DNA from: Rikenellaceae bacterium
GTDB lineage: Bacteria > Bacteroidota > Bacteroidia > Bacteroidales > UBA932
Reading direction: 5' to 3'
Assembly: GCA_900771335.1 (NCBI GenBank)
Contig: CAAGNP010000012.1
Location: 62,350 to 126,349 of the forward strand
Length of the DNA: 64,000 nucleotides
The stretch's first letter is position 1, and every line of letters begins with the position of its first letter. Below, in pieces: positions 13,662 to 50,982 of the stretch. The notes below the pieces were generated by a model. The model searched no databases. It worked only from the letters and a program-made list of their open reading frames with translations, and was not told the DNA's origin. The translations under genes were made by a program, and so were the position numbers.

Positions 13662-14526
13662 ATGAATATGTATCGCCATTATTGCAGAAATGATGAAACT
13701 ATATTTTTAAATTTCAATGAGGATTTCCAAAATTCAGTTTTTATTTCTCAGTCTCAACACCATAGCCTTGGTTTTGCGACACATATACCCGATTATTGTG
13801 ACGATTATTTTTGTTCTAAACCTTTAATAGTATCGCAAAACAAATCCATCAAACTGGACCTCAGATGTGAAGATGAGGATGGTACTTCTTTCATCATAGA
13901 TGATGCAGAAGTACGATCAGGAAAATTTCTTCAAAAGGTGTGTATCCTACAGTTCTAAAGTGTACGACATCAAAAACACAAAAGGGGACAGAGATTATGA
14001 TATCCCTCCGGTATATCTGATAGGTATTCTGGCTGTGGATTGCTTTGAAAGAAGTTCCGAATGGTGGAGAGGGAGATTTATATCCGACTACACTTTCAGA
14101 GAAAAATCTACAGGAGAGATAGTTTGTGAGACTATTTCTCTTATCTTTGTAGAACTGAAGAGGTTTGACAAGCCCCTTGAAGAGTGTAAGGACATTATAG
14201 ACAAATGGTGTTATGCACTAAAATATATGTCCAGACTGGATGAACTCCCTTCTGAATTACAGAACAGGGTATTCAAGAAACTCTTCAAAGCTGCTGAAAT
14301 CGCCCACTTCAGTACTGAAAAACGTAATATATACCAACACGAGATGATTACCGAAAGAGACGAAATCAATATCCGCAGAACAGCTGAAAAGAGAGCTCGT
14401 GCTGAAGGTCGTACTGAAGGAAGACTTGAAGTGTCTAAAAAAATGATTGAAAACGGTATGTCCATCGATGAAGTTGTCAAATATACCGGTATCCCTATAG
14501 AAGAGATCTCTTCTGAAATAGAATAG
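13662..14526 (+). pseudogene. Rpn / PD-(D/E)XK nuclease-family transposase-like gene, frameshifted
   Basis: Two overlapping ORFs sit in different frames. The family core LDLRCEDEDGTSFII(E)MQKYDQENFFKR is split by one extra nt near 13899-13902, with a TAG at 13897 in the downstream frame. The C-terminus (AEKRARAEGRTEGRLEVSKKMIENGMSIDEVVKYTGIPIEEI) is typical of the family. The N-terminus is not recognisable. Confidence 0.6.
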
Positions 14527-15930: not shown

Positions 15931-16015
15931 CGGAGAGAGAGGGATTCGAACCCCCGAACCCGTTAAGGTCAACGGTTTTCAAGACCGCCGCATTCGACCA
16001 CTCTGCCATCTCTCC
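15931..16015 (-). tRNA. tRNA-Ser (anticodon UGA), long variable arm, no encoded CCA
   Basis: The reverse complement is GGAGAGATGGCAGAGTGGTCGAATGCGGCGGTCTTGAAAACCGTTGACCTTAACGGGTTCGGGGGTTCGAATCCCTCTCTCTCCG. The acceptor is GGAGAGA/TCTCTCC, the anticodon loop is CTTGAAA, and the discriminator is G. Confidence 0.9.
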
Positions 16016-20656: not shown

Positions 20657-20664
20657 TATATTTG
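20657..20664 (+). promoter_or_regulatory. -7 box (TATATTTG) for cvpA
   Basis: TAnnTTTG 22 nt upstream of the ATG at 20686. Confidence 0.45.
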
Positions 20665-20685
20665 AGAAAAATTGGACTTAGAACT

Positions 20686-21180
20686 ATGAGTATTATCGAT
20701 ATTATCATCCTGATCCCTTTTGCTTTTGCACTATATAAGGGCATTTCAAACGGATTTGTAGGTCAAGTTGCAGGTATCAGCGGCATCGTATTGGGTATCA
20801 TCCTCGGCAGCAGATTTTCCGCACTCCTATCTTCCTACGTAGCCCAATGGATCAGTGCCAGCGAGGCTGTCATCAAAATCATATCCTTTGCAATTATCAT
20901 CGTGGCAGTTATACTTTTGGCCAACATTCTGTCCAAACTCATTGAAAAACTGTTCTCGCTTGTAATGTTGGGATGGCTCAACAAACTGCTCGGAGTCCTG
21001 TTGGCATTTGCCGGCACAGCTTTTATTGTAGGATCTGTCATTGCACTTATCTCATATATAAACGAGAGCTGGTTCACCATTATTCCTGCATCCAAGATTG
21101 AGGAATCCGTCCTATACCACCCTCTGGAGGACCTTGTGAATATGATTTTCCCATATTTCCAAAATTTCTTCACCAAGTAG
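20686..21180 (+). CDS. cvpA: CvpA-family membrane protein
   Basis: Four-TM protein starting MSIIDIIILIPFAFALYKG, the typical CvpA N-terminus. The start was set at ATG 20686. Confidence 0.8.
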   Translation: MSIIDIIILIPFAFALYKGISNGFVGQVAGISGIVLGIILGSRFSALLSSYVAQWISASEAVIKIISFAIIIVAVILLANILSKLIEKLFSLVMLGWLNKLLGVLLAFAGTAFIVGSVIALISYINESWFTIIPASKIEESVLYHPLEDLVNMIFPYFQNFFTK

Positions 21181-21218: not shown

Positions 21219-21268
21219 GACGATTTTTACAACAGATGCAGATGTTGTAGAAATCGTCAAACTTTTTT
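21219..21268 (+). terminator. Strong rho-independent terminator after cvpA
   Basis: 16-bp stem GACGATTTTTACAACA / TGTTGTAGAAATCGTC (one mismatch) with an 8-nt loop, followed by AAACTTTTTTATT. Confidence 0.8.
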
Positions 21269-21280
21269 ATTGCCATCTCC

Positions 21281-21288
21281 TAAGTTTG
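21281..21288 (+). promoter_or_regulatory. -7 box (TAAGTTTG) heading the GG-peptide export locus
   Basis: TAnnTTTG 20 nt upstream of the smORF ATG at 21309 and just downstream of the cvpA terminator. Confidence 0.5.
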
Positions 21289-21308
21289 CCCTCGAAAAGA
21301 GACGAGGT

Positions 21309-21449
21309 ATGAAAAATTTGAGGAGAGAGATATTGGAGAGTGTCGGCAGAATATTGCCGGAGTTCAGCCCGAACCTGCTCATAGCTTATATTGTTTCCCT
21401 CTGCCTGGCCTCCGCTCTTTTCATTATCCTATCAATCGTAGTGTTATGA
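21309..21449 (+). CDS. 46-aa tail-anchored small membrane protein (below the ORF-track cutoff)
   Basis: Hand translation gives MKNLRREILESVGRILPEFSPNLLIAYIVSLCLASALFIILSIVVL. The C-terminal 25 residues are hydrophobic. The stop overlaps the ABC start in an ATGA (21446-21449). Confidence 0.5.
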   Translation: MKNLRREILESVGRILPEFSPNLLIAYIVSLCLASALFIILSIVVL

Positions 21450-23578
21450 GCAGAATAATGAAAATACGCCAATTGGACAAGCATGACTGCGGAGCGGCAT
21501 GCCTGGCATCCATCTCATCATACTACGGACTGACTATACCCGTTACAGAGATCAGACAAAAATGCAATACCGGCCTAGAGGGGACAAACATAGGGGGGAT
21601 TGTCCGAGCTGCAACATCTTTACAGCTCGAAGCTCACGCTTATAAATCTTCAACACCTTGCTATACATCAAAACATCTTTCAGAAATCCCCCTCCCCTCT
21701 ATTCTCCACTTCAGAAACACTGAAGGGTGGCTGCATTTCGTGGTGCTATACAAAGTAACAGAGAAACATATCCATATAATGGACCCTTCAGACGGAGAGG
21801 TGCACAAGCTTAATGAGAAGGAATTCTCTGAGGCTTGGACAGGCTACATTATAACTGTATCACCCCGGGAAGGTTTTCTCAAAGGGGACACTACTACCCC
21901 ATTCATCAAAAGGGTAATCGGACTGGTTTCACTCTACAGGAAGGAGATAATACCATCTCTGATAGGATCTATGATATATGTACTGATAGGGCTAAGTATC
22001 TCCATATTCTTACAGAACATCATAGACAATATCATTCCGAACAGGGACACTTACACCTTCGGATGGTACTCTTTAGGGATAGGGATACTGATAGCTCTGT
22101 CGGTATTCATAGGGTATATCCGGTCTGTTCTCACCATTCGTGGGAGCATCAAAATAGATGGGACACTGATTTTGGGATACATATATCACATCCTCCGCCT
22201 CCCCTTGGCATTTTTCCATGAAAGGAGTACCGGAGACATAAATTCAAGGGTGAATGATGTTTACAGAATCAGGGCTTTTGTCTCAGGGAAACTCATTATG
22301 ATCTCAATATCTGTAGTCGCACTGATATTGTCATTCATACTTCTGTTTACCTTCTATTGGAAGCTGGCTGCCCTGACTATGGGGTTCATCCCCCTCTATG
22401 CGATTCTCTATTTCATTGCCGACAAGAGGAACAAGAAGAACAATAAAAGGATTATTGAGGCATCTGCCATTTTTGAGAACAGCACGATCGGGAGCATCAC
22501 ATCCATTGAGACGGCCAAATACTTTTCATCAGAGGAGCTTTTCTACAAAAAAGTGGAGGGTAAATATACCGATATGGCCCACAAACTTTTTTATGGTGGA
22601 AAGAGCAATGCAAAAATTCATCTGATGATAGACACAGTCACACAGATGCTCTCATTTATCACCATCATCCTGGGAACACTGTTCGTTCTGAATGGAGAGC
22701 TTACCACAGGGGAACTGGTCTCATTCTACACCATCTCCAGTTTCTTCACATCTCCACTCTCAATCCTCATAGAGAGCACCTACGAGCTAAATGATGCCAA
22801 GATAGCGGCTCAGAGGGTATTTGAGATTCTCGATTTGAAGGAGGAGTTCATTTGTGATAAAGAGAGGATACCGGTGCCCCCTGCCTCGGGGGATATAACC
22901 TTCAAAAATATCTCATTCCGCTATCCGGGGAAAAGAAACCTCTTCCAAAACCTTAACCTTACTATCCATCAGGGGGCGATAACATCGGTAATTGGGGACA
23001 ATGGGTGCGGCAAAAGTACCATTGCATCGCTTTTAATGCGGGGGTACCTCCCCACAGAGGGGTCAATAGAGATAGATGGGACAAATATAAACGACATAGA
23101 TATTCAGGAGTGGCGCAAACACATATCAATCATCCCACAAAAGGAGAGTTTGTTTGATGGAACCGTACTGGATAATATTGTGCTTGGAGATTGGAGCAAG
23201 GGCATTGACAATGTGCTGGAGACATGTGAATATGTCGGGATGATTGATTTTTTCAAACAACACCCAAAAGGGTTGCAGACGCGGGTAGGTGAACAGGGGA
23301 AGTACCTGTCCTCTGGGGAGAGGAGCAAAATATCCCTCGCCAGGGCAATAATACGCCAACCCAGGATTCTGATTATGGATGAGGTGACATCCCACCTCGA
23401 CTCAGAATCGGCATCCAGAATATATGAGATCTCCCGGGAACTCACCTCCAAAGGGGTAACAATTCTAAACATTACCCATGATAAGAGGTTTCTGGAGTAT
23501 TCAGACTATATAGTAGATCTTAATAAATGTGTACACAACGGTGAAGAGCGCACACCTGAAAGTTGCACTCAAGCTTAA
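21446..23578 (+). CDS. Peptidase C39 domain-containing ABC exporter (bacteriocin/GG-leader peptide processing and export)
   Basis: The N-terminal C39 domain has the QLDKHDCGAAC catalytic Cys, a later His (WLHFVVLY) and Asp (IMDPSD). A six-TM domain follows. The NBD has Walker A GDNGCGKST, signature LSSGE and Walker B ILIMDE. Confidence 0.92.
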   Translation: MSRIMKIRQLDKHDCGAACLASISSYYGLTIPVTEIRQKCNTGLEGTNIGGIVRAATSLQLEAHAYKSSTPCYTSKHLSEIPLPSILHFRNTEGWLHFVVLYKVTEKHIHIMDPSDGEVHKLNEKEFSEAWTGYIITVSPREGFLKGDTTTPFIKRVIGLVSLYRKEIIPSLIGSMIYVLIGLSISIFLQNIIDNIIPNRDTYTFGWYSLGIGILIALSVFIGYIRSVLTIRGSIKIDGTLILGYIYHILRLPLAFFHERSTGDINSRVNDVYRIRAFVSGKLIMISISVVALILSFILLFTFYWKLAALTMGFIPLYAILYFIADKRNKKNNKRIIEASAIFENSTIGSITSIETAKYFSSEELFYKKVEGKYTDMAHKLFYGGKSNAKIHLMIDTVTQMLSFITIILGTLFVLNGELTTGELVSFYTISSFFTSPLSILIESTYELNDAKIAAQRVFEILDLKEEFICDKERIPVPPASGDITFKNISFRYPGKRNLFQNLNLTIHQGAITSVIGDNGCGKSTIASLLMRGYLPTEGSIEIDGTNINDIDIQEWRKHISIIPQKESLFDGTVLDNIVLGDWSKGIDNVLETCEYVGMIDFFKQHPKGLQTRVGEQGKYLSSGERSKISLARAIIRQPRILIMDEVTSHLDSESASRIYEISRELTSKGVTILNITHDKRFLEYSDYIVDLNKCVHNGEERTPESCTQA

Positions 23579-23588
23579 CATCAACATT

Positions 23589-23780
23589 ATGGAAGAGAAA
23601 AATTCAATGGGAAAGAACTGGGTAGAGCTGAGCACTTCCGAGGCAGAGGCAGTCAGAGGTGGAATCGGGTTAGGAAACATCAAACATCTGTTAAAGTTGA
23701 TTGGAAGTTTGTTCAACTTCGCCCACGACTATTATGAAGACTTCAAGCGTGGCTACGAAAATGGGTGGAATCTGTTCTAA
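23589..23780 (+). CDS. Double-glycine-leader precursor peptide A (alternative start 23607)
   Basis: M(EEKNSM)GKNWVELSTSEAEAVRGG | IGLGNIKHLLKLIGSLFNFAHDYYEDFKRGYENGWNLF. The GG codons are at 23658-23663. It starts 10 nt after the ABC stop. Confidence 0.75.
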   Translation: MEEKNSMGKNWVELSTSEAEAVRGGIGLGNIKHLLKLIGSLFNFAHDYYEDFKRGYENGWNLF

Positions 23781-23794
23781 AAAAGGGGGATATT

Positions 23795-23977
23795 ATGTAC
23801 AAGAATTTTATAGCATTGACCGAGGATGAATTATACGACATATACGGAGGGAGATCGGAAGATATGGCTGACATAGTTGAATTTATCGGTATGGGATTCG
23901 GGATTATTGCCAAACTTATAGACAAGATCAAATCGGCATTCAAGGATGCCCAGAAAAAACCTGCACAGGCACAATAA
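23795..23977 (+). CDS. Double-glycine-leader precursor peptide B
   Basis: MYKNFIALTEDELYDIYGG | RSEDMADIVEFIGMGFGIIAKLIDKIKSAFKDAQKKPAQAQ. The GG codons are at 23846-23851. The stop overlaps the OMP start (TAATG). Confidence 0.75.
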   Translation: MYKNFIALTEDELYDIYGGRSEDMADIVEFIGMGFGIIAKLIDKIKSAFKDAQKKPAQAQ

Positions 23978-25197
23978 TGGAGAGGATTGCCACCTTAATG
24001 TTCTTGCTTCTGCTTCATGCCTCTCCACTTTTGTGCTCCGGTCAAAATATATGGACATTGGATATGTGCATAGAATATGGTCTTGAGCACAATCTGGATA
24101 TAGAGTATAGCAGAATTACCTCTATTCAGGCCAAAAATGAACTGATCAGGTCCAGACTGGAGTATTTGCCCACCCTAAATGGGACAGCGGCACTGAGTAT
24201 CCATCCTGAGTCTCAGTTCACCCCATCAATAGGTATGTCATCCATACTGTTTGACGGAATGAGAAGATACAACAGCACTAAGAGCCTGAAGACATCATTT
24301 GAGATATCTGAGGTGGAGAGTGAGAGGATCAGAAACGAACTCTCTATCTCCATAACCAAAGCATATTTGGATGTACTACTCTCCATAGAGCTGGAGAGGG
24401 TAGCAAAGGAGAGTTACAGAACTATTGAGGAGCAATGCCTTAAGCAGAAAATACTTTTCGAATCGGGGAAGAGCACATACTCATCCCTATTGGAGATGGA
24501 ATCACAAAAATCTTTGGAGAAGGTGGAGCTGGTCAACTCACATAACGTTTTATCAATAAACCTCATATCATTAACACACTTGATGAACCTCCCCTTCTCT
24601 GAGGATTTCTTCATATCAGACCAGCTGGTGGAGAACATGCCGCTTATAGAGTGGTCAGATATAGAGAGGATATATAAATCTGCACTCTCCCTACCCTACA
24701 TAAGATCAGCTGAACTTGGCGTTATCCAAAAGGGATATGACATGAAGATAGCTGCAGGTGGAATATCTCCCACTATCTCCATAGATATGATATACAACCT
24801 CAAGATGGACATCAACCAAATAGGGCTGACGGTGATAATACCCATTTTCAACAAAGGCCAAACACTGACATCGGTCAAAAACGCCACTTATGAGTACAGA
24901 AAATCTGAAATTGAACTGCAAAGGAGGCATCAGGAACTCTACAAGGATATCCAACATAGGGTACAGGAGGCCATATCATACTACCATGGGCATATGGCAG
25001 CCATTGACCGGCTCAACGCTGCCCGAACAGCCTATGAAACTATCAGAGAGAAGTTCGAAGTGGGGCTTGTATCACCAAACGATTACATCAGAGCCAGGAA
25101 TGATCTGTATGAGGCATCTTCCCAATCCATACAGACCAAATACAGATATTTGTTTCAAATCAAAATTCTAGATTTATACCAAGGTGAAGCCAGGTAA
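23977..25197 (+). CDS. TolC-family outer membrane efflux protein
   Basis: Has a signal peptide and two repeats of the TolC-type coiled-coil/beta pattern (LEYLPTLNG..., YRYLFQIKILDLYQG). Confidence 0.85.
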   Translation: MERIATLMFLLLLHASPLLCSGQNIWTLDMCIEYGLEHNLDIEYSRITSIQAKNELIRSRLEYLPTLNGTAALSIHPESQFTPSIGMSSILFDGMRRYNSTKSLKTSFEISEVESERIRNELSISITKAYLDVLLSIELERVAKESYRTIEEQCLKQKILFESGKSTYSSLLEMESQKSLEKVELVNSHNVLSINLISLTHLMNLPFSEDFFISDQLVENMPLIEWSDIERIYKSALSLPYIRSAELGVIQKGYDMKIAAGGISPTISIDMIYNLKMDINQIGLTVIIPIFNKGQTLTSVKNATYEYRKSEIELQRRHQELYKDIQHRVQEAISYYHGHMAAIDRLNAARTAYETIREKFEVGLVSPNDYIRARNDLYEASSQSIQTKYRYLFQIKILDLYQGEAR

Positions 25198-26338
25198 AAT
25201 AAAGATAAGATGGTGGTATTACCCCTCCGCTTTCCTTCTACTCATTATAGTCTTACTAAGTGGAGGGGATGAAGGGACTGCAGTGTATGTGTCCACCCCG
25301 GAAATAACCGACATCTCCGAGAGTATCCCGGCAAACGGGAAGGTTCGCCCTGTATCGGAGGTCCATATCAGCCCTGATGTTTCCGGGGAGATAATAGAGA
25401 TCCTTTTTGAGGAGGGTATGGCTGTACAAAAGGGGGATCTCCTCATCAAAATCAAACCTGACATTTACATATCCATCCTGGACCAGGCAATGGCCACATT
25501 CAAAGCGACCAAAGCGCAATATGCACAGCAGGAGGCAACACTTGAGAGGGCAAAGGTGCAGTTTGAAAGATACTCCACCCTCCTGGAGAAGAGGGCCATT
25601 TCACTCGCAGAATATGAGGAGGCCAAGATAGATTACACGATTGCCCTGAAAGGGCTTGAAACCTCCAAATATCAGATCCAAAGTGCTCAGGCAGGGGTTA
25701 GAGAGGCTCAGGAGAATCTCTCCAAAACAGCAATATACTCACCTATGGATGGGGTTATCACCAAGCTGCTTGTGGAGAAGGGGGAACGTGTAGTGGGTAC
25801 ATCCCAAATGGCAGGCACAGAGATAATGAGGATATCTGATATGACCCATATGGAGGTGGTGGTGGATGTCAATGAAAATGATATTGCCAGGATAACCAGA
25901 GGGGACAGTGTGGAGATAGTATTTGACGCACTCAGACATGAGCTTTTCCAGGGAATCGTCACTAAAATAGCCAACTCATCCAAAAGTCTGGGATATAGTG
26001 CCGATCAGGTGGCATCTTTCGAGGTGAACATTCTCATTATTGGGGGGAGTGAACATTTGAGACCAGGAATGTCTGCATCTGTTACTATAAACACAGAAAA
26101 AAAAGAGAACATTATTACTGTACCTCTTCGGTGTATAAATCCAAATGGTTGTATATTTGTAGTCTCAAATGACCGGACTACGGTTCAGCAGAGAAGTATC
26201 ATCACCGGTATACAGGATATCCATCGGATAGAGATAATAGAGGGTATCGGACCGGATGAGGAGATTGTAATAGGGCCACATGAAGCCATAAACAAAAATT
26301 TGACCGACAATGGAAAAATATTTATTGATAGAGACTAG
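25184..26338 (+). CDS. HlyD-family membrane fusion (periplasmic adaptor) protein
   Basis: N-terminal TM anchor, a lipoyl-like segment (VSGEIIEILFEEGMAVQKGDLLIKI), a coiled coil and beta-barrel segments. It has a GTG start with a 14-nt overlap with the OMP gene. Confidence 0.85.
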   Translation: MKPGKIKIRWWYYPSAFLLLIIVLLSGGDEGTAVYVSTPEITDISESIPANGKVRPVSEVHISPDVSGEIIEILFEEGMAVQKGDLLIKIKPDIYISILDQAMATFKATKAQYAQQEATLERAKVQFERYSTLLEKRAISLAEYEEAKIDYTIALKGLETSKYQIQSAQAGVREAQENLSKTAIYSPMDGVITKLLVEKGERVVGTSQMAGTEIMRISDMTHMEVVVDVNENDIARITRGDSVEIVFDALRHELFQGIVTKIANSSKSLGYSADQVASFEVNILIIGGSEHLRPGMSASVTINTEKKENIITVPLRCINPNGCIFVVSNDRTTVQQRSIITGIQDIHRIEIIEGIGPDEEIVIGPHEAINKNLTDNGKIFIDRD

Positions 26339-27008
26339 CACAGACGCATGTTCTGCAGCTATCGCCGAAGGGGAAAAAATTATAGCATCCGAGTATATTC
26401 AGGAATATAAGTCCCATGCCAGATTACTTGTACCTATGGTCGAAAAGCTGCTGAAAAAGGCAAGCATCTCCCTCTCGGAATGCTCAGCTGTAGCGGTAAG
26501 CGAGGGTCCGGGATCATATACCGGATTAAGGGTCGGAGTCTCTTCTGCCAAAGGGTTGTGCTATGGGGCAGGAATTCCTTTGTTGGGAATACCCACCCTC
26601 GACATCCTGGCCCAGATGGGTATTGAGAAGACAAATACCGCCAACAGCGTCATCGTCCCAATGCTCGACGCAAGGAGAATGGAGGTCTATTGCGCCTCAT
26701 ACGACCATCTCGGCAGAAGAATCTCGGATATAAAAGCTGAGATTCTGGGTGAAAACAGCTTTGAGGATCTTTTCGCCCAATACGACCAGGTTATCTTCAT
26801 CGGGGATGGCGCAGAGAAGTTCGAAGTGTGCCTCGATGAGGCCAAAAAGGGGAAGTCCACCATCATAGGGTGCAGACCGGATGCCAGATACATGGTCAAT
26901 CCCGCTATTGATGCATACAAAAAAGAAGAGTTCAAAGATATTGCATACTTTGAACCCTTCTATCTTAAAGATTTCGTGGCAGGTGTAAGTAAGAAATCTC
27001 TTATCTGA
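26310..27008 (+). CDS. tsaB: tRNA t6A37 biosynthesis protein TsaB
   Basis: MEKYLLIETSTDACSAAI and GPGSYTGLRVG motifs. The start overlaps the adaptor gene end by 29 nt. Confidence 0.9.
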   Translation: MEKYLLIETSTDACSAAIAEGEKIIASEYIQEYKSHARLLVPMVEKLLKKASISLSECSAVAVSEGPGSYTGLRVGVSSAKGLCYGAGIPLLGIPTLDILAQMGIEKTNTANSVIVPMLDARRMEVYCASYDHLGRRISDIKAEILGENSFEDLFAQYDQVIFIGDGAEKFEVCLDEAKKGKSTIIGCRPDARYMVNPAIDAYKKEEFKDIAYFEPFYLKDFVAGVSKKSLI

Positions 27009-28146
27009 CGAGTCTCGAAATCACCTTTTCCAATTTTGACATATCGAAAACATCTTTGTCCACGATATCACCTTTCTTGTCGATGATATAAAGGGTAGGG
27101 ATGTTGGTAATATTGTAAAGATTCAATGTTCCTGACATATTGCCCGGGTCACATACACTTACCCATTCAAGACCTTGTGCCTTAACCTGGCTTGCCCACG
27201 CTGTCTTGTCTGTATCGGCACACACCTGATAAACCTCAAGACCTCTGTTTTTGTATTTGTCATACAACTCCTTCAACTCAGCATTGAAGATTTTGTGTGT
27301 AGGCTCTGTAGTAGACCAGAAGGAGAGGATAATTACTTTACCGTCAAGCTCTGACAAGTTCCTTACCTTCGCATTTACATCATAAAGGCTGATATCAGGG
27401 TGGCTCATTTCAGATGCGTTGTCGATTTTGGTTCCAAAATAGATATATTGCTCCCTCTGCTTGATATCATCAGCCAAAGATGACACATATGGAGAGTTTG
27501 GATATACTACACTTAGAGAGTCGTACACTTTTTTGAAGATGAACACATCATTGATGTCTCCATACACAGGAAGCGCCTCTGAGAACTTCTGATAAAGTAC
27601 AGGGATAACTGAGATGGATTTGGAGTTATTGATAAGATATTTTGTAGAGTTCTGTTTATGTTGGACGAAAAGTTTTGTCAGCTCAGTAGTGAGTTCTCTT
27701 GCCTTTTTGTCATTTTTTGCCTGCTGGGCAGCATCCAGTTCATTGAAAAGGTTGTACACTTTTGTCAAAACCTCTTCTTGGGATCTCTCCCACTCGGCAT
27801 ATTTTACAGCCTCTTCTGATCCCTCAACGGTAGATATTCCATCCTTGGATACATTTACAGACAGCTTGTCTCCCTCCTGAAGGACTACAGATGCCATTTT
27901 CTTACCATCGTTAAGGAAATAGTAGAAATCAGGCGATCCCGGCTGGCAATTTGCCCCAAACTGAGTCTTCTCCCCTTTCACATATATGGTATCTACCACA
28001 TAAATTCTATTGATAGAAAGTTTGGTAACGATAATTTCTGTACTGTCGGCAGCACCCTCTACATTGAAGGTCACTTTTGCATTATATTTTTGTGAACATG
28101 ATGCCGCTACAACAAGTGCGAAGAATAGTAGTGCAATTTTTTTCAT
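27001..28146 (-). CDS. TlpA-like thioredoxin-fold lipoprotein lacking the CxxC motif (DUF4369-like N-terminus)
   Basis: Lipobox AASC. The C-terminal Trx fold (KVIILSFWSTTEPTHKIF...NIPTLYIIDKKG) has STTEPTH where WCxPC is expected. Confidence 0.7.
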   Translation of the reverse strand: MKKIALLFFALVVAASCSQKYNAKVTFNVEGAADSTEIIVTKLSINRIYVVDTIYVKGEKTQFGANCQPGSPDFYYFLNDGKKMASVVLQEGDKLSVNVSKDGISTVEGSEEAVKYAEWERSQEEVLTKVYNLFNELDAAQQAKNDKKARELTTELTKLFVQHKQNSTKYLINNSKSISVIPVLYQKFSEALPVYGDINDVFIFKKVYDSLSVVYPNSPYVSSLADDIKQREQYIYFGTKIDNASEMSHPDISLYDVNAKVRNLSELDGKVIILSFWSTTEPTHKIFNAELKELYDKYKNRGLEVYQVCADTDKTAWASQVKAQGLEWVSVCDPGNMSGTLNLYNITNIPTLYIIDKKGDIVDKDVFDMSKLEKVISRLVR

Positions 28147-29439: not shown

Positions 29440-30321
29440 TTATGGTTTGATAACAAACTCCTTGTCTTTGGTAATTTGCTCCTTCAACTGGTCCATTGAA
29501 GCAAATTTCCTTTCATCTCTGATTTTTGCTACAAATTCTATGCTCATTTCCAAGCCATAGATATCCTCGTCAAAATTCAGAATATGTGTCTCTATTGTTC
29601 TGCTCTGATTCTCCCCCACTGTAGGTCTATTTCCGATATTGCAAATACCCTTATAGTCCCTTCCCAATACATGCACATCCACAAGATAGACACCATTTGC
29701 CGGAACCAGCTTCAACGGTTCGTAGAGCTCCATGTTCGCAGTAGGGAAACCGATAGTCCTCCCAAGCTGCTTGCCTGAAACCACCACTCCGTGCAGAAGA
29801 TATTTGTATCCCAGCAACTCTGATGCCCCCTTGACATCTCCATCCAGAAGTGCCGCCCTGATTTTGGTCGAGCTGACCATCTTCTCACCCAAATGGACCT
29901 CTTCTACACGAATGGTCTCAATTCCAAGTGAGGCAGCGATCTCCCGCATCTCTTCCTGTGTCTGAAGGGATGAGTTTCCCAATCTGTGGTCATACCCTAT
30001 GACAAGTGTGGAGACATTGAATTTTTTTATAAGATACTCCTCCATAAACTCCTTGGTAGAGAGTTTACTGAACTCTCTGGAGAAATTGACAACATGGAAG
30101 TTGTCAATCCCCAGTGAGAGTACCCTTTGTTTTTTCTCTTCAAGAGAGTTCAATAATCTTAATGTATGTGCATCCTGCTGCAGTACAGTCCTAGGATGAG
30201 GCCAGAAAGTGATTACAGCACTCTCCATCTGTCTCTCGGCAGCTATCTGAAGCAGACTGTTGAGAACAGCGCGGTGCCCACCATGCACCCCATCAAAGAA
30301 ACCGGTAGCTGCTACAACCAT
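29440..30321 (-). CDS. ribF: Bifunctional riboflavin kinase / FMN adenylyltransferase
   Basis: GFFDGVHGGH at the N-terminus and GFPTAN in the kinase half. Confidence 0.9.
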   Translation of the reverse strand: MVVAATGFFDGVHGGHRAVLNSLLQIAAERQMESAVITFWPHPRTVLQQDAHTLRLLNSLEEKKQRVLSLGIDNFHVVNFSREFSKLSTKEFMEEYLIKKFNVSTLVIGYDHRLGNSSLQTQEEMREIAASLGIETIRVEEVHLGEKMVSSTKIRAALLDGDVKGASELLGYKYLLHGVVVSGKQLGRTIGFPTANMELYEPLKLVPANGVYLVDVHVLGRDYKGICNIGNRPTVGENQSRTIETHILNFDEDIYGLEMSIEFVAKIRDERKFASMDQLKEQITKDKEFVIKP

Positions 30322-33300
30322 CTTACAAGTTCGAAATCTTGACGGTGAGGAAGTTTGTCACTCTTGGCAAAAATTCTACCTGCAATCTGGTATGCACCTG
30401 TAGTATTTGGAACGATAGTCGAAGAGTATGTTGCCACACCATTTTCAATCTTCTCAAAATCAAATGTGTAAACGCCCTCTTTAACATATCTTCCTTTGGC
30501 ATTCTGACGTGCATATACCAACTCAAATCCGATATCATTAGGATCCATATCACCTACGAATACTGAGATATATGATTTGAACTCTTTACCAAGAAGCAAT
30601 TGTCCTTGGGCATCGTTCATGAAGTTCGATTCACGGATCTCAAGTTGCTCCCAACCTTTACGCATTTTTCTCTTCCATAGTGCGATCTCTCTTGCCTCAG
30701 CGTAATCAGATGCGATAAGTTTGCCTGCTCTTGCTGCAAGTGGTTTGTAATATTTATCAATATAATCGTTGAACATTCTGTTGGTAGTGAAGTCGCATGC
30801 TACCTTGGCAATACAGTTCTTGATGATCTTGATCCACTCTGTAGGGATACCTGTCACAGGGTTTACATCATAGTATGTAGGTGCGATTTCACTCTCAATA
30901 ATATTGTAGATGGTAGCTGCATCCAATTCATCCTGGAAGTTCTGGTCATCGTATGTTCTCTCTTGTGGAAGAGCCCAACCAGCACCCTCTTTGTAACCTT
31001 CTACCCACCATCCGTCAAGTACAGAGAAGTGCATTACACCGTTCATAGCAGCTTTCTCTCCTGATGTACCAGAAGCTTCAAGTGGTCTTGTAGGGTTGTT
31101 CATCCATACGTCCACACCTTGAACAAGATATTTTGCGATGTTGATATCGTAGTTAGGGACGAATACGATCTTACCGATAAACTGAGGCATCTTGGAGATA
31201 TCTACAATCTTCTTGATCAAATCGCTGCCGGCCTTGTCTGCAGGGTGAGCTTTACCTGCGAATAGGAATTGAACAGGTCTCTTAGGATTGTTTACAATAG
31301 CAGAAAGTCTGTCCAAGTCTCTGAATAGAAGGTGTGCTCTCTTATATGTAGCAAAACGTCTTGCAAAACCGATGGTCAAAACGTCGTCTCTAAGTGTTCT
31401 CTTGATCTCTACGATATGTTGTGGAGAGTAGTGGCTTGAAACTGTAGGGTCAGAAAGTTGTTTCTTGACAGCCTTGATAAGTCTCTGACGAAGTTCCTGA
31501 CGAACACTCATAATCTCGGCATCTTTCACCTCATAGATACCGTTGAAGCACTCTTTGTCGTATTTGTGTGTTTTGAATTCGTCACCGAAAACTCTGGCGT
31601 GGATCTCTTTCCATTGTGGAGCAGTCCATGTAGGATAGTGAACACCATTGGTTACATAACCTACGTGGTTCTCTTCAGGAAGGTAACCTGGCCACATGCT
31701 AGCCAAGATATCCTGACTCACTTTACCGTGTAGCCAGCTCACACCGTTAACCTCTTGAGAGATGTTGCAAGCAAGATTACTCATAGAGAATTTCTCATTC
31801 TGATCGTATGGGTTATTCTTACCTAGGGACATAAGTGTATCCCAACCAATTTTCAATCTCTCTGGATAGTGTGAGATATATTTTCTCAATAGATCCTCAT
31901 GGAATGCATCGTGACCTGCAGGTACAGGGGTATGTGTAGTGAATAGAGATGAAGCTCTAACTACCTCCAATGCTTCGTCATAAGATAGGTTATCATTGTT
32001 GATATACTCTCTTAGTCTCTCAAGACCGGTAAATGCAGCGTGACCCTCGTTGCAGTGGTATACATCTGCATCAAGACCCAAAGCACGCATTGCTCTGATA
32101 CCACCGACACCTAGAAGAAGCTCCTGTTTCAAACGGTTCTCCCAATCGCCACCATATAGATGGTAGGTAACCTGACGATCCTCTGGAAGGTTTGCATCGT
32201 AATCAGTATCCAACAAGTAAAGCTCAGTTCTACCTACATCCACTCTCCAAAGTCTTGCGTAGATATTTCTGCCAGGGAATGCTACAGAGATGGTAACCCA
32301 TTTGTCCTCTGCGTCTCTCACTGGAACTGCAGGTATTTTCATGAAGTCCTGAGGTTCGTAGTCAGCGATCTGATCACCGTAACCTGAAAGTTTCTGATTG
32401 AAGTAACCATATCTGTAAAGGAGACCGATACCGATCATGTTAACATTAAGGTCACTTGACTCTTTCAAATAGTCACCAGCCAAGATACCAAGACCACCAG
32501 AATAGATCTTAAGTGATGCGTCAAGACCATACTCCATACAGAAGTATGCAATCGATGCACCCTCACGGTGATTCTTAGCCTCCATATACTCATTGAACAA
32601 AGCTGCCACTTTATCCAATTGGCGTACGAATTTCTCGTTTTTCTCCAATTGTTGGTACTGTTCATATGATAGATGGTCTAGAAGTGCTATAGGGTTACGT
32701 CCCAATGCTACCCACAACTCTTTGTCAATGCTCTTAAACAAATCCATCGCTTCCTGGTTCCAGCACCACCATAGATTCTTAGAGATTATATCAAGATATT
32801 TCAATCTCTCTGGTATGTTCCTTGTCACCAAAACTCTGTTCCAGGAAGGTGTTCCTACGTCAATTTTCTTGTATGTCATATTTTTTATATTGTTTTTTTC
32901 AGGGAATTTCCCTTTTCTTTCTATTACTCTTTCTATTGCCAAAGAGTATGCCTCTTTGTAAAATTTCAAATGGTTTTTCCACAATGCTATCTCCGATACA
33001 GATTTGGCATTGTCTCTATATTTTTTCTGCTCTTTTTCGCTTAGAGAAGATATCTCCACGATCTTTTCACAGACACCATCCACCACCTCCGAGTAGTTGG
33101 ACTCACCCCTTTCGAGGACAGAGATTCCCGGATGGTCTTTGGTGTAGTACTCATTTACCCATAGACCAAAACCGGCAAGTGTCGTAGTGACTGTTGGTAC
33201 CTTAAATGCCAATGACTCAAGAGGTGTATAACCCCATGGCTCATAGTATGAAGGAAATACCGACAGATCAAGACCCGACAGAAGCTGATAGTATGGAAGG

Positions 33301-34547
33301 TTGAATACGCCATCATTACCATTCAGATAGGATGGGATGAAAAGCAGCCTTACATTCTTATTGGATCTGTTGTTCAGACCCAACGCTCCCATTCTACAGA
33401 GGACAGGGTCGTTTTCAGGATACTGCAAATTGTGTGAGGTGTGGGTGGTATAGTCGCTCTCCTTGCCCCCAAGTTTGGCCACAAGCTCCTTGTCATATCC
33501 GTTGATCCCTGCAGGGACAAGAATAAAGCCCAGGATCGTCCTTCCTTCATATGAAGAGTTCTCCAATTGGGCAAGAGAATCCACGAATATGTCTATACCT
33601 TTGTTCTTATATTCGTATCTCCCTCCGATTCCGACCAGCACGGGATTTTCAAATACCTCCCCTGTCATAGCCTGAGCCACCTCAATAAGCTTCGCTCTAC
33701 CCTCTTTCTGGTATTTAACGAACTCTTCGGATCCAGGGACAATGGTATCTTCGAAGCCGTTTGGTGTCACAAGATCCACATCCTTGCTAAGGAATCTTGA
33801 ACACTCCTTGGCAGTAAGGTCGCTGACGGTGGTAAATACATCCGCATTGTGCGCAGCACACTTCTCCAATGAGTGCTTCGCTGCCACATTCAACTCTCTA
33901 GCCTTCTGATCTCCGTCTACAATATCAATGACATCGTAAAGCTTGATATTGTTGTATGCAAGGCTACGCCCCAATGTGGTGGCGTGGGTGGTAAACGCTG
34001 TCGCAACAGGGAGTGGTGTCTGCTTCAGATACAATACGCCGGCACCTGTCATCCATTCGTGGAACTGGGCCACCACCTTCTGGCTTGGAAGGAGATTGAA
34101 GTTTATAAAACTCTCGATAACCCTACCGGCTGCATATCCGAACAGAGCCGATTCTACATAGTCCCAGCCACCACTCAGGGAATCAAGATGATACTTCTCC
34201 CAAAACTCTGAGAGAATTTCATTTTTCCTGGTGATGTACTGCGAAAAATCTACTAAAAATGCTATTGGTTTCCCCTGTACATTCCATCTACCTACCCTCA
34301 CTCTGATACCCTCCTGGGCAGCAGAGACCCTCCATGTTCTATATAGGAGCGGATCTTCAGTGAATTCGGGGTTCTGGGTGGTATCCATCCAGACATCGGG
34401 ACCAATGAAGATTTGCTCCTGATTGATCCCTTCTGCCATACCGATGGATTTGGTAGCAATCACGGTGTGGATACCCCCCACTTTATTGCATACCTCCCAA
34501 CTAACCTCGAACAAGTAGTCGGGGCTAATCAACTTTTTCTGCTTCAT
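30312..34547 (-). CDS. Fusion protein: GT3 (eukaryote-type) glycogen synthase + GT35 alpha-glucan phosphorylase
   Basis: The N-terminus has the GT3 hallmark FEVSWEVCNKVGGIHTV. The C-terminal ~850 aa have the phosphorylase PLP-lysine block EASGTSGEKAAMNG. It is a single uninterrupted 1411-aa ORF. Confidence 0.85.
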   Translation of the reverse strand: MKQKKLISPDYLFEVSWEVCNKVGGIHTVIATKSIGMAEGINQEQIFIGPDVWMDTTQNPEFTEDPLLYRTWRVSAAQEGIRVRVGRWNVQGKPIAFLVDFSQYITRKNEILSEFWEKYHLDSLSGGWDYVESALFGYAAGRVIESFINFNLLPSQKVVAQFHEWMTGAGVLYLKQTPLPVATAFTTHATTLGRSLAYNNIKLYDVIDIVDGDQKARELNVAAKHSLEKCAAHNADVFTTVSDLTAKECSRFLSKDVDLVTPNGFEDTIVPGSEEFVKYQKEGRAKLIEVAQAMTGEVFENPVLVGIGGRYEYKNKGIDIFVDSLAQLENSSYEGRTILGFILVPAGINGYDKELVAKLGGKESDYTTHTSHNLQYPENDPVLCRMGALGLNNRSNKNVRLLFIPSYLNGNDGVFNLPYYQLLSGLDLSVFPSYYEPWGYTPLESLAFKVPTVTTTLAGFGLWVNEYYTKDHPGISVLERGESNYSEVVDGVCEKIVEISSLSEKEQKKYRDNAKSVSEIALWKNHLKFYKEAYSLAIERVIERKGKFPEKNNIKNMTYKKIDVGTPSWNRVLVTRNIPERLKYLDIISKNLWWCWNQEAMDLFKSIDKELWVALGRNPIALLDHLSYEQYQQLEKNEKFVRQLDKVAALFNEYMEAKNHREGASIAYFCMEYGLDASLKIYSGGLGILAGDYLKESSDLNVNMIGIGLLYRYGYFNQKLSGYGDQIADYEPQDFMKIPAVPVRDAEDKWVTISVAFPGRNIYARLWRVDVGRTELYLLDTDYDANLPEDRQVTYHLYGGDWENRLKQELLLGVGGIRAMRALGLDADVYHCNEGHAAFTGLERLREYINNDNLSYDEALEVVRASSLFTTHTPVPAGHDAFHEDLLRKYISHYPERLKIGWDTLMSLGKNNPYDQNEKFSMSNLACNISQEVNGVSWLHGKVSQDILASMWPGYLPEENHVGYVTNGVHYPTWTAPQWKEIHARVFGDEFKTHKYDKECFNGIYEVKDAEIMSVRQELRQRLIKAVKKQLSDPTVSSHYSPQHIVEIKRTLRDDVLTIGFARRFATYKRAHLLFRDLDRLSAIVNNPKRPVQFLFAGKAHPADKAGSDLIKKIVDISKMPQFIGKIVFVPNYDINIAKYLVQGVDVWMNNPTRPLEASGTSGEKAAMNGVMHFSVLDGWWVEGYKEGAGWALPQERTYDDQNFQDELDAATIYNIIESEIAPTYYDVNPVTGIPTEWIKIIKNCIAKVACDFTTNRMFNDYIDKYYKPLAARAGKLIASDYAEAREIALWKRKMRKGWEQLEIRESNFMNDAQGQLLLGKEFKSYISVFVGDMDPNDIGFELVYARQNAKGRYVKEGVYTFDFEKIENGVATYSSTIVPNTTGAYQIAGRIFAKSDKLPHRQDFELVRWL

Positions 34548-46943: not shown

Positions 46944-47417
46944 ATGAAGATAACACTCCTTACAGTCGGAAAAACCACTTTCCCTTTTGTTAAAGAAGGG
47001 TGCGACATCTTCATAAAGAGGATAAAACATTACACCACATTTGAATCGATAGAGATTCCTGAGCTGAAGAACACCTCTTCCCTTTCCAAGGAGCAGATCA
47101 AAGAGAGAGAGGGGGAATTGATTCTCAAGCACATCAAAAACACAGACAAAGTCATCTTGCTGGACGAGAGGGGCAAGAGCTTCTCCTCTATAGAGTGGTC
47201 CAGGGCAATAGAGAAAGAGACCACATCGGGGACCAGATCCCTAATCTTCATAGTGGGTGGAGCATATGGATTCTCCAAAGAGATTTACGATAGGGCTGAC
47301 TCCAAACTTTCTCTCTCCACCATGACTTTCTCTCACCAGATAATCAGACTGTTCTTTATCGAGCAGCTATATAGGGCATTTACCATAATTAAAGGGGAAC
47401 CGTATCACAATGAGTAA
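46944..47417 (+). CDS. rlmH: 23S rRNA (pseudouridine1915-N3)-methyltransferase RlmH
   Basis: 157-aa SPOUT protein (FIVGGAYGFS...LSLSTMTFSHQ). Confidence 0.9.
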   Translation: MKITLLTVGKTTFPFVKEGCDIFIKRIKHYTTFESIEIPELKNTSSLSKEQIKEREGELILKHIKNTDKVILLDERGKSFSSIEWSRAIEKETTSGTRSLIFIVGGAYGFSKEIYDRADSKLSLSTMTFSHQIIRLFFIEQLYRAFTIIKGEPYHNE

Positions 47418-50400: not shown

Positions 50401-50982
50401 AGATTGAAGCAGCAGGATGTTCCAAATTGGGAAGAGAAATTCTATGCCGCATCATCTTCTCTTCTGGAACAGATAAATATTCTGTCGCAGACCGCCTCCG
50501 AATTCTCAAGCTTCGCCAAATTCTACAATGAGGACAGCAGGGTATTCGATTTGAAAGGGCTCATCCAGGACCAACTTATGTTTTTCGACAATAGGGACAA
50601 CATCCGCTTTGAGTTTGTAACCACAATCGGGCAGGCAGATGTCCTGGCAAAAAAAGACCAGATAACCAGGGTTCTTGTCAACCTGATAAGCAATGCCATT
50701 CAAGCACTGGAAGCTCTGGATGGCGGTATCATCAGAGTATCCCTCACCTCTACAGGGAGATCATACTCTGTTTCCATTGAGGACAATGGTGAAGGGGTAA
50801 AGGATGAGAACCTGTATAAATTATTCAAGCCCAACTTTACCACCAAAAGCAGCGGCACAGGATTGGGCTTGGCTATATGCAAAAGTATTATCGATCAGAG
50901 CAATGGTGAGATCTCTTACCGCAGGTCCAACCTTGGCGGTGCCAGTTTCTCATTCACACTCCCTATCTATCAGCAGGGATAG
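47410..50982 (+). CDS. Large multi-TM sensor histidine kinase (NtrY-like transmitter)
   Basis: 1190 aa with many TM helices in two blocks. H-box ARHIAHEIKNPLTPM, N-box LISNAIQA, and G-boxes DNGEGV and GTGLGLAI. Confidence 0.85.
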   Translation: MSKRWNNISAFVRKNLAAILGVLSLVFFFLSFIQYHYETPKEEAEQLQKRLNIRIGIMDDYARKALDTPSDEWPGLFNFPDDMVLYKYVSDTIQSWANLFPIHNDLVDKVPSRYIFHDLANTNPFNTRLPYLHPEAQYVNLGNCWYVVKTYSRDDSKVIAGIFINSEYLSQNNILQNVVNEKLKLDDQYEVVPIGRDDSNVVSTRDGEPLFSIIRTVNTYNSSPYTMLRWLSILFIGFALFSYHFKTRTSKSLLITLCSLLALRIVAFTISKLTFQNIEFFTPLLYADGTLFNSLGAIIINHIFMFLDILAIYMMRIWIIKNIKHSTEIARKIKLSIVTLAPLFIFCYIHFTLKSLILNSSIDLELYNIQGITIYTIVSFFSYSLLFAALLLSLQFVALAYDMKRNISLLSNRGILVYLIFISIYSVVCVANYGFTKEYERNRSITNKLAIDRDLDLELHLRSMEKLIQEDPIINLVISVPNSGELIKSRLEELYFWSIINKYDIRITVCKPHDLLQIDSHSKPVDCFTFFRKEIVEKYGLLLGPRSNFYSLNNNNSFINYFGQFTYIKDFSLYNLYIEIDSKKINESFGYPSDMLDSRALSRRSLPNIYSYAKYYENKLVAYDGKYNYPLINEKEYKERYSHHRSNGYVHFVNKTSPEGFVIVSRRTRSLIPYLVTFSYLFIFYAAITFFMLRFKRDKKRESSKKPFKSFRNKITTLITSSLVVAIALVCTGSIIFIIEVFDENNISIMEDKLNSIQTSVSELCKYANNPQDIVTVDIVSELKDIALNTQIDINLYNPSGKLITSTKDEVFSQYLISTRINPKAYKALIINNEKQLIEKETIATLEYFSLYAPIFNINGKFIAILNIPYFLDTSQVKEDATPIIATIINLFLLLILASLAVSSVLSNSIAKPVVMISKKMQELDITQKGEHISYSGNDELGALVNAYNNMVDDLEESTRKLAETEREQAWKEMARHIAHEIKNPLTPMQLTIQHLVRLKQQDVPNWEEKFYAASSSLLEQINILSQTASEFSSFAKFYNEDSRVFDLKGLIQDQLMFFDNRDNIRFEFVTTIGQADVLAKKDQITRVLVNLISNAIQALEALDGGIIRVSLTSTGRSYSVSIEDNGEGVKDENLYKLFKPNFTTKSSGTGLGLAICKSIIDQSNGEISYRRSNLGGASFSFTLPIYQQG

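Follow-up and report, generated by a model that had tools for sequence, protein, structure and literature searches.

A site-fixed chromosomal operon of gut Bacteroidales predicted to export a pair of unmodified double-glycine peptides

What does a compact peptide-export locus lying between cvpA and tsaB send out of the cell, and does its cargo act as a weapon? The locus in question occupies part of a 64,000-nucleotide stretch of DNA from Rikenellaceae bacterium (NCBI GenBank assembly GCA_900771335.1, contig CAAGNP010000012.1, positions 62,350 to 126,349 of the forward strand), called the window hereafter. In order on the + strand, it consists of a small open reading frame (smORF), a gene for a C39 peptidase-containing ABC transporter (PCAT), the genes of two peptide precursors with double-glycine (GG) leaders (peptides 1 and 2), and genes for a TolC-like outer-membrane efflux protein (OEP, the channel) and a membrane fusion protein (MFP, the adaptor), followed by tsaB. 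A previous interpretation made from the letters of the window (the sequence-only reading) had seen here a self-contained export locus for a distinct peptide family. Our analysis leads to a reading that we hold with about even confidence, namely that a chromosomal, vertically inherited operon would export a fixed pair of unmodified, jointly membrane-active peptides. Its parts differ in strength: processing and export of both peptides are highly probable, and a joint membrane-active, antagonistic role of the pair is put forward tentatively, at or slightly below even confidence. The features that matter for this reading are the following (aa, amino acids; nt, nucleotides).

20662-21180, + strand: cvpA (PF02674), co-oriented with the operon
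21219-21268, + strand: intrinsic terminator of cvpA, with a hairpin at 21219-21258 (16-bp stem, 8-nt loop) followed by a T-run
21281-21288, + strand: predicted promoter box TAAGTTTG (TAnnTTTG, Bacteroidetes-type -7), ending 20 nt before the smORF ATG
21309-21449, + strand: smORF, 46 aa, from an ATG; its stop overlaps the PCAT ATG at 21446 (ATGA)
21446-23578, + strand: PCAT, 710 aa, peptidase-C39 ABC exporter
23589-23780, + strand: peptide 1 precursor, 63 aa, 10 nt after the PCAT gene; predicted 25-aa leader (ending in LSTSEAEAVRGG) and 38-aa mature part
23795-23977, + strand: peptide 2 precursor, 60 aa, 14 nt after the peptide 1 gene; predicted 19-aa leader (ending in LTEDELYDIYGG) and 41-aa mature part
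23977-25197, + strand: OEP, 406 aa, TAATG overlap with the peptide 2 stop; PF02321
25184-26338, + strand: MFP adaptor, 384 aa, GTG start, 14-nt overlap with the OEP gene; TIGR01730
26152-26159, + strand: box TATATTTG within the adaptor gene, at -158 from the ATG of tsaB
26310-27008, + strand: tsaB (t6A synthesis; TIGR03725, 172 bits), 29-nt overlap with the adaptor gene; last gene of the co-oriented block

The exporter shows the domains of a PCAT, with Pfam matches to Peptidase_C39 (PF03412, 1.1e-33), ABC_membrane (PF00664, 8.5e-42) and ABC_tran (PF00005, 1.5e-31). Its residues Q9 (the oxyanion Gln), C15, H97 and D113 align with the catalytic residues of PCAT1 (PDB 4RY2), in agreement with the complete C39 catalytic set that the sequence-only reading had proposed, and the Q-x5-C motif is retained in most PCATs scanned from the syntenic clade. 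In the nucleotide-binding domain, Walker A (GDNGCGKST) and Walker B (ILIMDE) are both normal. The best solved relatives, which match over the full length, are PCAT1 of Clostridium thermocellum (4RY2, 3.6e-109) and ComA of Streptococcus (3.8e-98). The catalytic Cys, His and Asp of both align with those of the window PCAT, whereas the ABC signature differs: in place of LSxGQ it reads LSSGE in the window (23300-23345) and LSGGE throughout the syntenic clade (P0017-P0040), a Gln to Glu replacement. More distant Bacteroidota PCATs mostly keep LSGGQ. In the profile search that had been suggested for the ABC protein, the best NCBIfam model was TIGR01193 (peptide cleavage/export ABC transporter) with 422.2 bits. 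As this score lies below the curated cutoff of 523.85, the window protein is classed, on sequence grounds, as a divergent member of the peptidase-containing ABC transporters. Its exact sequence was not on record when looked up. A PCAT call of only 599 aa in one related contig (L103) reflects the start chosen by the gene caller; an internal stop is absent, which rules out a pseudogene. As its C39 protease site is complete and its ABC core looks functional, the PCAT is predicted to be a protease-exporter.

The two small genes that follow fit the role of its cargo. Both leaders agree with the GG-leader consensus, which has hydrophobic residues at -4, -7, -12 and -15, Glu at -8, a length of 15-30 aa and a position next to a PCAT gene: W11, L14, E18, A19 and V22 precede G24-G25 in peptide 1, and F5, L8, E12, L13 and I16 precede G18-G19 in peptide 2. 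The proposal of two adjacent peptides with canonical GG leaders is thereby upheld. The GG is invariant in all orthologues of both peptides, and both genes are present, in the same order and adjoining the PCAT gene, in every locus recovered (L007-L022, L027, L028, L033, L102, L113 and L114). Profile searches of the peptides, likewise suggested beforehand, placed them in no family above cutoff: Pfam gave no match for either, and NCBIfam gave marginal matches only, all far below the cutoffs and confined to the leader, including the lactococcin G-beta/enterocin 1071B model (E 0.004-0.009). Twenty diverse relatives of peptide 1 also yielded nothing beyond marginal leader matches when scanned against families. 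Among 5.8 billion proteins searched, peptide 1 had matches in 6 clusters and peptide 2 in 10 (70-98% identity), with strong conservation of the mature part in both cases. A peptide 1 profile retrieved only 19 proteins, all of 58-84 aa, from 1.84 billion cluster representatives.

These 19 proteins share a MEEK-type N-terminus, a leader of the form sE[LM]..[IV]RGG and a mature part of ~38 aa ending in Y..[DE][FIM]..GF..GW; a C-terminal motif Y..DF..G[YF]..GW is conserved in the mature part of peptide 1. An AlphaFold2 model of peptide 1 consists of a short leader helix (16-22) and one long helix (28-62; mean confidence score, pLDDT, 71), and the hydrophobic moment is 0.56 in the window (range 0.53-0.80). 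In the peptide 2 orthologues recovered from the loci, the GG is followed by a polar stretch of ~8 residues, a hydrophobic helix and a basic tail. The helix contains [G/A]xxxG in 15/15 orthologues (GMGFG in the window), a motif that is not conserved in the peptide 1 family alignment. Its 19-residue Kyte-Doolittle hydrophobicity is near-transmembrane, 1.65 in the window and ~1.5 generally; the mature N-terminus is acidic or polar, and the tail in the window is Lys-rich. Among orthologues, net charge spans -4 to +5 in peptide 1 and 0 to +7 in peptide 2. Both mature peptides lack Cys, as had been stated before.

Are such short reading frames genuine genes? Among six genus-level loci, in which synonymous sites are saturated (proportion of synonymous differences, pS, ~0.7), peptide 1 has a ratio of nonsynonymous to synonymous substitution (dN/dS) of 0.105, peptide 2 one of 0.119 and the smORF one of 0.17; the value for cvpA was unreliable owing to a start-codon and frame problem and was not used. 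The mature parts (dN 0.125 for peptide 1 and 0.150 for peptide 2) evolve ~2.5x slower than the leaders (0.35 and 0.34), and the corresponding values are 0.19 for tsaB, 0.33 for the MFP, 0.36 for the PCAT and 0.55 for the OEP. Because dN/dS is low at saturated synonymous sites, the GG is invariant and the genes are conserved in related loci, we conclude from these comparisons that both peptides and the smORF are real genes under purifying selection. That the small reading frames are chance products of long spacers, and that the ABC protein exports some other cargo, would fit their small size and lack of family matches and nothing else. The dN/dS of ~0.1-0.17, the invariant GG, the leader consensus and the conserved spacing all speak against it; with conservation at the protein level contradicting it, this explanation has a negligible probability.

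The layout of the genes is that of one transcription unit. The sequence-only reading had described six packed genes with junctions at 21446 (ATGA), gaps of 10 and 14 nt, a TAATG at 23977, a 14-nt overlap at 25184 and a final 29-nt overlap with tsaB (26310 versus 26338), all of which is correct; judging from these junctions, all operon genes are translationally coupled or nearly so. Its start of the locus at 21281 needs to be moved, since a promoter box and no gene start is found there and the smORF begins at ATG 21309, the most likely start, with TTG 21270 not preferred. The starts of the peptides are set by their conserved N-termini (MEEK… in peptide 1, MYKN… in peptide 2). The peptide 1 frame can be extended upstream to a GTG in the 3' end of the PCAT gene (23529-23588), and the public gene calls P0001 and P0003 (79-83 aa) use such extended starts; the MEEK start at 23589 is likely the true one.

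A sigma-70 promoter scan is uninformative for Bacteroidetes, and the TAnnTTTG box was therefore used instead, which we take to be the Bacteroidetes -7 promoter element; its enrichment in the window (87 matches versus 39.5 expected from shuffles) is as expected for such an element. When the upstream regions of ten related loci are aligned, TTTG proves invariant (10/10), and the complete box is positioned at -27 to -29 in each of the 6 genus-level loci. The cvpA hairpin is kept in the genus-level relatives with both arms changed. The strong terminator and the separate promoter box of the sequence-only reading thus hold up, and the locus is best described, on these predicted signals, as an operon with its own promoter box, separated from cvpA by a terminator. 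A second TAnnTTTG match, TATATTTG, stands at exactly -158 from the tsaB ATG in 6/6 genus-level loci and is absent from more distant loci. Its position is kept despite saturated synonymous sites, and the box may serve as an internal promoter making tsaB independent of the operon promoter. Neither a modification enzyme nor a regulator was found in or beside the operon by Pfam and NCBIfam searches of the window proteins, as had been stated before. The nearest sensor gene codes for a 1190-aa histidine kinase with a weak Cache-like domain match (47410-50982); it lies ~20 kb from the operon and shows no sign of linkage.

The route to the cell exterior would require the last two genes. The OEP matches PF02321 in two repeats (2.6e-36) and TIGR01844 below its cutoff (95.7 bits versus 225), and is weakly similar to TolC structures. 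The adaptor, which carries an N-terminal membrane anchor helix, passes the cutoff of TIGR01730 (RND_mfp; 189 bits versus 94.9) and fails that of the HlyD model TIGR01843 (64 bits versus 208.65). Its best solved relative is MacA (5NIK, 4e-25), and no HlyD chain among the solved structures matched it at 1e-5. By these matches the adaptor is of the MacA/RND type, and 'HlyD-like' is valid at the superfamily level only. The dedicated TolC-like/HlyD-like pair of the sequence-only reading therefore stands as regards the presence of channel and adaptor genes, and needs correction as regards the type of adaptor. In MacAB-TolC systems MacA is likewise anchored by an N-terminal helix, but the pump there is of the MacB (FtsX) type; Pfam detected no FtsX or MacB_PCD protein in the window operon, whose only inner-membrane transporter is the PCAT.

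A protein conferring immunity has a single candidate. The smORF product has a polar N-terminal segment with the motif V.G[MI]LP and a C-terminal transmembrane helix, and matches no Pfam or NCBIfam model. Equivalents of 45-51 aa were recovered in most of the complete loci examined and in L102, with P17 nearly invariant and Y27 invariant. The smORF stop lies at or just before the PCAT start in most relatives and overlaps it in the window. This 46-aa, tail-anchored protein is thus the only candidate for an immunity factor or an accessory subunit of the PCAT. The earlier statement that there is no recognisable immunity gene is right for the surroundings of the peptide genes, and overlooks this conserved small membrane protein coupled to the PCAT.

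How old is the locus? On every contig with a homologue of either peptide the gene order is that of the window: the isoleucyl-tRNA synthetase (IleRS) gene on the - strand, cvpA, smORF, PCAT, peptide 1, peptide 2, OEP, MFP, tsaB, and on the - strand the genes for an AhpC/TSA-like protein, a HIT protein and GreA. The same order holds where PCAT identity has fallen to 38-47% (L019, L020, L021 and L113/L114, the last two labelled 'MAG: Rikenellaceae bacterium', that is, metagenome-assembled genome). A metagenome scan anchored on TsaB and followed by tblastn of the window proteins distinguished these states of the site.

State A: full locus, also found in L022, L027, L028 and L033
State B: cvpA directly followed by tsaB, 17 loci, some from human-gut metagenomes
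State C: OEP-MFP-tsaB without PCAT or peptides, ~20 loci from more distant Bacteroidota
State D: cvpA-like, smORF-like, PCAT, peptide 1, peptide 2 and tsaB without OEP-MFP, L102 (6587-10217)

In state C the adaptor is 35-44% identical to that of the window (E 1e-75 to 1e-96), adaptor orthologues by position thus preceding tsaB in other Bacteroidota, and upstream of the OEP are unrelated genes or, in L082, a MacB-type ABC/FtsX set. MFP and tsaB overlap or lie <=25 nt apart in states A and C. A TolC-like and a MacA-like gene stand before tsaB in many non-Bacteroidales Bacteroidota (L041, L050, L058, L071, L073, L074, L082, L084, L086, L088, L090, L091, L095 and L098-L101), usually with no inner-membrane pump alongside; together with tsaB they look like a trio conserved across the phylum.

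The identity matrix of IleRS shows that state A spans two deep clades. The window organism, L007, L019, L020 and L021 belong to one, with L102 (state D) grouped there. L028 falls in the second, where its IleRS is 76-77% identical to those of L039 and L055 (state B or unassigned) and 63-67% identical to those of the other state A organisms. A rough TsaB tree and an IleRS tree, both neighbor-joining and read without support values, agree with an old locus; the argument from ancestry rests on the identity matrix. Because site and order are the same at IleRS identities of 63-76%, and because L028 has the locus and its closest IleRS relatives do not, the simplest history suggested by these sequences is an old, vertically inherited locus with repeated loss, not a recent insertion.

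The sequence-only reading had taken the locus to interrupt a housekeeping context, which implies a recently acquired, mobile bacteriocin island between cvpA and tsaB. The direct adjacency of these two genes in many related Bacteroidales (state B) would suit an island, as would the faster divergence of the export genes compared with the flanking IleRS and HIT genes. The comparison of cvpA-tsaB synteny that it had suggested does not bear the insertion out. Relatives show clean loss or partial forms, the locus keeps its site and order between the deep clades and is present in all conspecific contigs that reach it, and PCAT, OEP and MFP diverge in step with their hosts; the state of L028 and its relatives fits loss better than gain. 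Integrases, transposases and repeats are absent from the borders of the locus, and in a plasmid collection peptide 1 had a chance-level match only (E 0.6, Ralstonia) and peptide 2 none. A recent mobile insertion is thus contradicted by the site-fixed occurrence across deep clades, and we regard it as very improbable.

At the species level, an identical HIT protein is encoded at ten recovered places, and the locus is present at all of them that reach far enough. Seven of the ten are collinear with the window at ~96.8% nucleotide identity, and in 7/7 of these peptide 1 is identical at the nucleotide level. The proteins of the locus are ~99% identical to those of a water-buffalo colon MAG, 'Bacteroidales bacterium RGIG7513'; a PCAT scan of a genome collection returned this as the one close relative, all other matches being to the nucleotide-binding domain only. 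In the conspecific contigs L103-L108 and L111 the export genes differ by ~1% (15-26/2133 nt in PCAT, 0 in peptide 1) and tsaB by 116/699 nt; the AhpC/TSA-like protein is 92% identical to its counterpart in L001, and the HIT protein beyond is 100% identical (26310-28146). The pattern looks like a recombination patch by which this strain had tsaB and the TSA-like gene replaced; one of its breakpoints would lie close to the 3' terminus of the adaptor gene.

A gene of the 'colicin V production' family, cvpA, stands immediately upstream of an export operon that resembles that of colicin V (ColV); CvpA's own role in ColV secretion lacks an explanation (bioRxiv 10.1101/2020.09.25.314492). A functional link was rejected, as a conserved terminator lies between cvpA and the operon and the adjacency of cvpA and tsaB persists in state B. 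The link is weakened further by L019, which has no called cvpA, and by L021, which has an extra gene between cvpA and the locus. By these comparisons the juxtaposition looks like shared synteny rather than function.

Among known systems, ColV (CvaB, CvaA and TolC of Enterobacteriaceae) and the other class II microcins come close. They also combine an unmodified GG-leader peptide, cleavage by a C39 peptidase, and an adaptor with a TolC-type channel, and need no modification enzymes (PMC10352776, PMC12219008). The ColV system differs in having one substrate, where the window locus has two. In the latter the channel gene is part of the operon, the adaptor is of the MacA/RND instead of the HlyD/CvaA type, and the peptides share no sequence similarity with ColV. 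Class II microcins, exported by CvaAB-TolC-type systems, have small membrane immunity proteins encoded next to the toxin (PMC12219008), whereas no immunity gene lies beside the peptides in the window. Moreover, ColV is borne on plasmids or islands, and the window locus is chromosomal, fixed and ancient. The class IIb bacteriocins of Firmicutes (lactococcin G, plantaricin EF/JK and enterocin 1071) resemble the locus in their adjacent genes for GG-leader peptides of ~40 aa, in one operon with export by a PCAT, and in their helical, amphipathic or hydrophobic mature parts; the GxxxG-like motif followed by a basic tail recurs in window peptide 2. They differ in that the window locus belongs to a Gram-negative host and includes genes for adaptor and channel, peptide 1 lacks a conserved GxxxG, the window peptides are nearly uncharged, and a dedicated immunity gene next to the peptides was not found. 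Three features thus make up the likeness to class IIb bacteriocins and class II microcins: the two genes are strictly paired, peptide 2 combines a GxxxG-type motif with a basic tail, and modification and regulatory genes are lacking.

Within the Bacteroidales, the bacteroidetocins (class IIf) share the GG leader, dependence on a PCAT and mature peptides of ~40 aa (PMC6671954). They are single peptides with a 15-aa leader, a mature part of 42 aa and four Cys, and their four-gene region includes a thiol oxidoreductase, a protein with five transmembrane helices and a PCAT (PMC6671954). The window peptides, in contrast, form a pair without Cys, with leaders of 25 and 19 aa; the thiol oxidoreductase and five-helix genes are absent from the locus, and adaptor and channel genes are present. 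Immunity was not found for the bacteroidetocins either, and there are indications that they have spread horizontally, among them a region that two Bacteroides species share at 100% identity (PMC6671954), whereas inheritance of the window locus appears vertical. By these differences in leader length, Cys content and accessory genes the peptides are clearly distinct from bacteroidetocins, as had been proposed. The self-contained export architecture has a precedent: sets of PCAT, MFP and outer-membrane protein genes have already been noted in Bacteroidales clusters for ribosomally synthesised and post-translationally modified peptides (PMC10352776). Genome mining has predicted 4,494 unique class II precursors in Bacteroidota (PMC12648112). 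In the text of the open-access literature we found no description of a two-peptide system from Bacteroidota or of this locus.

In the mechanism that we propose, the PCAT would bind the leader helices of both peptides, cleave after Gly25 in peptide 1 and Gly19 in peptide 2, and translocate the two products: from peptide 1 an amphipathic helix of 38 aa, from peptide 2 a 41-aa product in which a hydrophobic helix with [G/A]xxxG precedes a basic tail. Passage across the outer membrane would fall to the MacA-like adaptor, anchored in the membrane, and the TolC-like channel. The two peptides might act together on a membrane or a membrane protein, like class IIb bacteriocins or class II microcins. 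The smORF product might be the immunity factor of the producer or an accessory subunit of the PCAT.

Several observations weigh against a jointly acting toxin pair. The organism is known from metagenome assemblies only, similarity to characterised bacteriocin families is absent apart from the marginal leader-only matches in Pfam and NCBIfam, and the mature peptides of the window, with net charges of 0 and +1, do not carry the strongly positive charge that membrane-active bacteriocins usually have. An immunity gene downstream of the peptides is missing, and the TAATG junction leaves nothing between peptide 2 and the OEP. The mature peptides are as constrained as the housekeeping gene tsaB. Lineages with IleRS 63-76% identical have the locus fixed at one chromosomal site, no conspecific contig that extends to this site lacks it, and the tight junction of the block with the essential tsaB is of long evolutionary standing. 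The same features (the near-neutral charge, the missing adjacent immunity gene, a mature dN of 0.125-0.15 similar to the 0.19 of tsaB together with the C-terminal peptide 1 motif kept family-wide, the single site with losses and no patchy gains, the occurrence in every conspecific contig and the lasting junction with tsaB) would be in line with a different function of the same machinery. Instead of a weapon, the pair might be a secreted or envelope factor conserved throughout the lineage under ordinary purifying selection; it might, for instance, signal, act on surfaces or vesicles, or partner an envelope protein. Other PCATs offer precedents. RaxB of Xanthomonas is a PCAT whose GG-leader cargo, RaxX, is no bacteriocin and acts as a signal. 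HetC of Nostoc appears in one account as a PCAT system with signal-type, non-bacteriocin cargo (PMC10986499). Both are chromosomal PCATs with adaptor or channel partners and GG-leader cargo, as in the window; their cargo sequences are unrelated to the window peptides, and the window locus has no linked sulfotransferase, receptor or regulator. A signalling role is further disfavoured because the operon neither contains nor adjoins a gene for a receptor kinase or regulator, the distant histidine kinase being unlinked, and because 38-41 aa is long for pheromones. The pairing of the peptides and the [G/A]xxxG helix with a basic tail in peptide 2 are instead typical of pore-forming two-peptide bacteriocins, and large Bacteroidales lineages have lost the whole locus cleanly, so that it is dispensable. 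We therefore consider a secreted factor unlikely, though the most serious competitor. It is possible, at a similarly low probability, that the pair is an ancient, lineage-wide physiological or signalling factor of a large group of uncultured gut Bacteroidales that came to lie beside tsaB before the lineages split and was lost in the cvpA-tsaB branch.

Export itself, the firmer part of the jointly-acting-pair reading, has to contend with another set of observations. The known adaptor partners of PCATs are of the HlyD/CvaA type, whereas the adaptor here is of the MacA/RND type. A PCAT is missing beside OEP-MFP-tsaB in state C, and OEP-MFP is missing beside PCAT-peptides-tsaB in state D (L102); therefore, the PCAT/peptide module and the OEP/MFP module can live apart. 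Channel and adaptor might accordingly belong to an older efflux module, tied to tsaB and serving another pump, in which case the PCAT would deliver the peptides to the periplasm or inner membrane or use other partners. The adaptor type, the many Bacteroidota in which no PCAT adjoins OEP-MFP-tsaB, with a MacB-type ABC/FtsX set beside it in L082, and the arrangement in L102 would all suit such a composite block. It is difficult to reconcile, however, with the state A loci, in all of which the OEP gene starts directly at the stop of peptide 2 or overlaps it, and the MFP gene overlaps that of the OEP, giving one message of fixed order. The block encodes no other inner-membrane transporter, and export to the outside by a PCAT depends, in Gram-negative bacteria, on adaptor and channel, CvaAB-TolC being an example (PMC10352776). 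A composite origin is thus improbable, clearly more so than a secreted factor with the machinery intact, and a jointly membrane-active pair remains the reading that we prefer.

A whole-window Rfam scan returned two tRNAs only and no RNA element at the locus. The sole mobile-element-like gene noticed in the window, which codes for a 208-aa protein of the PD-(D/E)XK 'transposase' family (PF12784), lies ~7 kb from the locus, beyond IleRS. A 1411-aa reading frame corresponds to a fusion of glycogen synthase and glycogen phosphorylase domains that is annotated, with equal length, at this position in every related locus; genes for GH57, GT4 and debranching enzymes follow, which makes this a conserved glycogen cluster. 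The coordinates of these features are given below.

708-780, - strand: tRNA gene (Rfam)
15931-16015, - strand: tRNA gene (Rfam)
13900-14526: PF12784 family gene
30312-34547: glycogen synthase-glycogen phosphorylase fusion gene

The kind of system described here is known. What sets this locus apart are two unclassified, always-paired peptide families, a conserved micro-protein, the pairing of a PCAT with a MacA-type adaptor, which is of interest for transporter biology, and an unusually deep, site-fixed, vertical history. To our knowledge, the bacteroidetocins are the only unmodified GG-leader peptides of Bacteroidales that have been characterised, with thousands more merely predicted. The setting is unusual for bacteriocins, in that the locus occupies one fixed site and is inherited vertically in deep Bacteroidales lineages dominant in samples from ruminants and the hindgut, and has been lost cleanly elsewhere. 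This evolutionary pattern is atypical for bacteriocins, and such deep vertical conservation leaves room for a non-antagonistic role. If the peptides are toxins, they would represent, as far as the searched literature shows, the first two-peptide bacteriocin from Bacteroidota, and a weapon kept as part of the core genome. If they are not, the locus would point to a hitherto unrecognised conserved function of PCAT-dependent export, and to a 'housekeeping' use of such exporters in Gram-negative bacteria.

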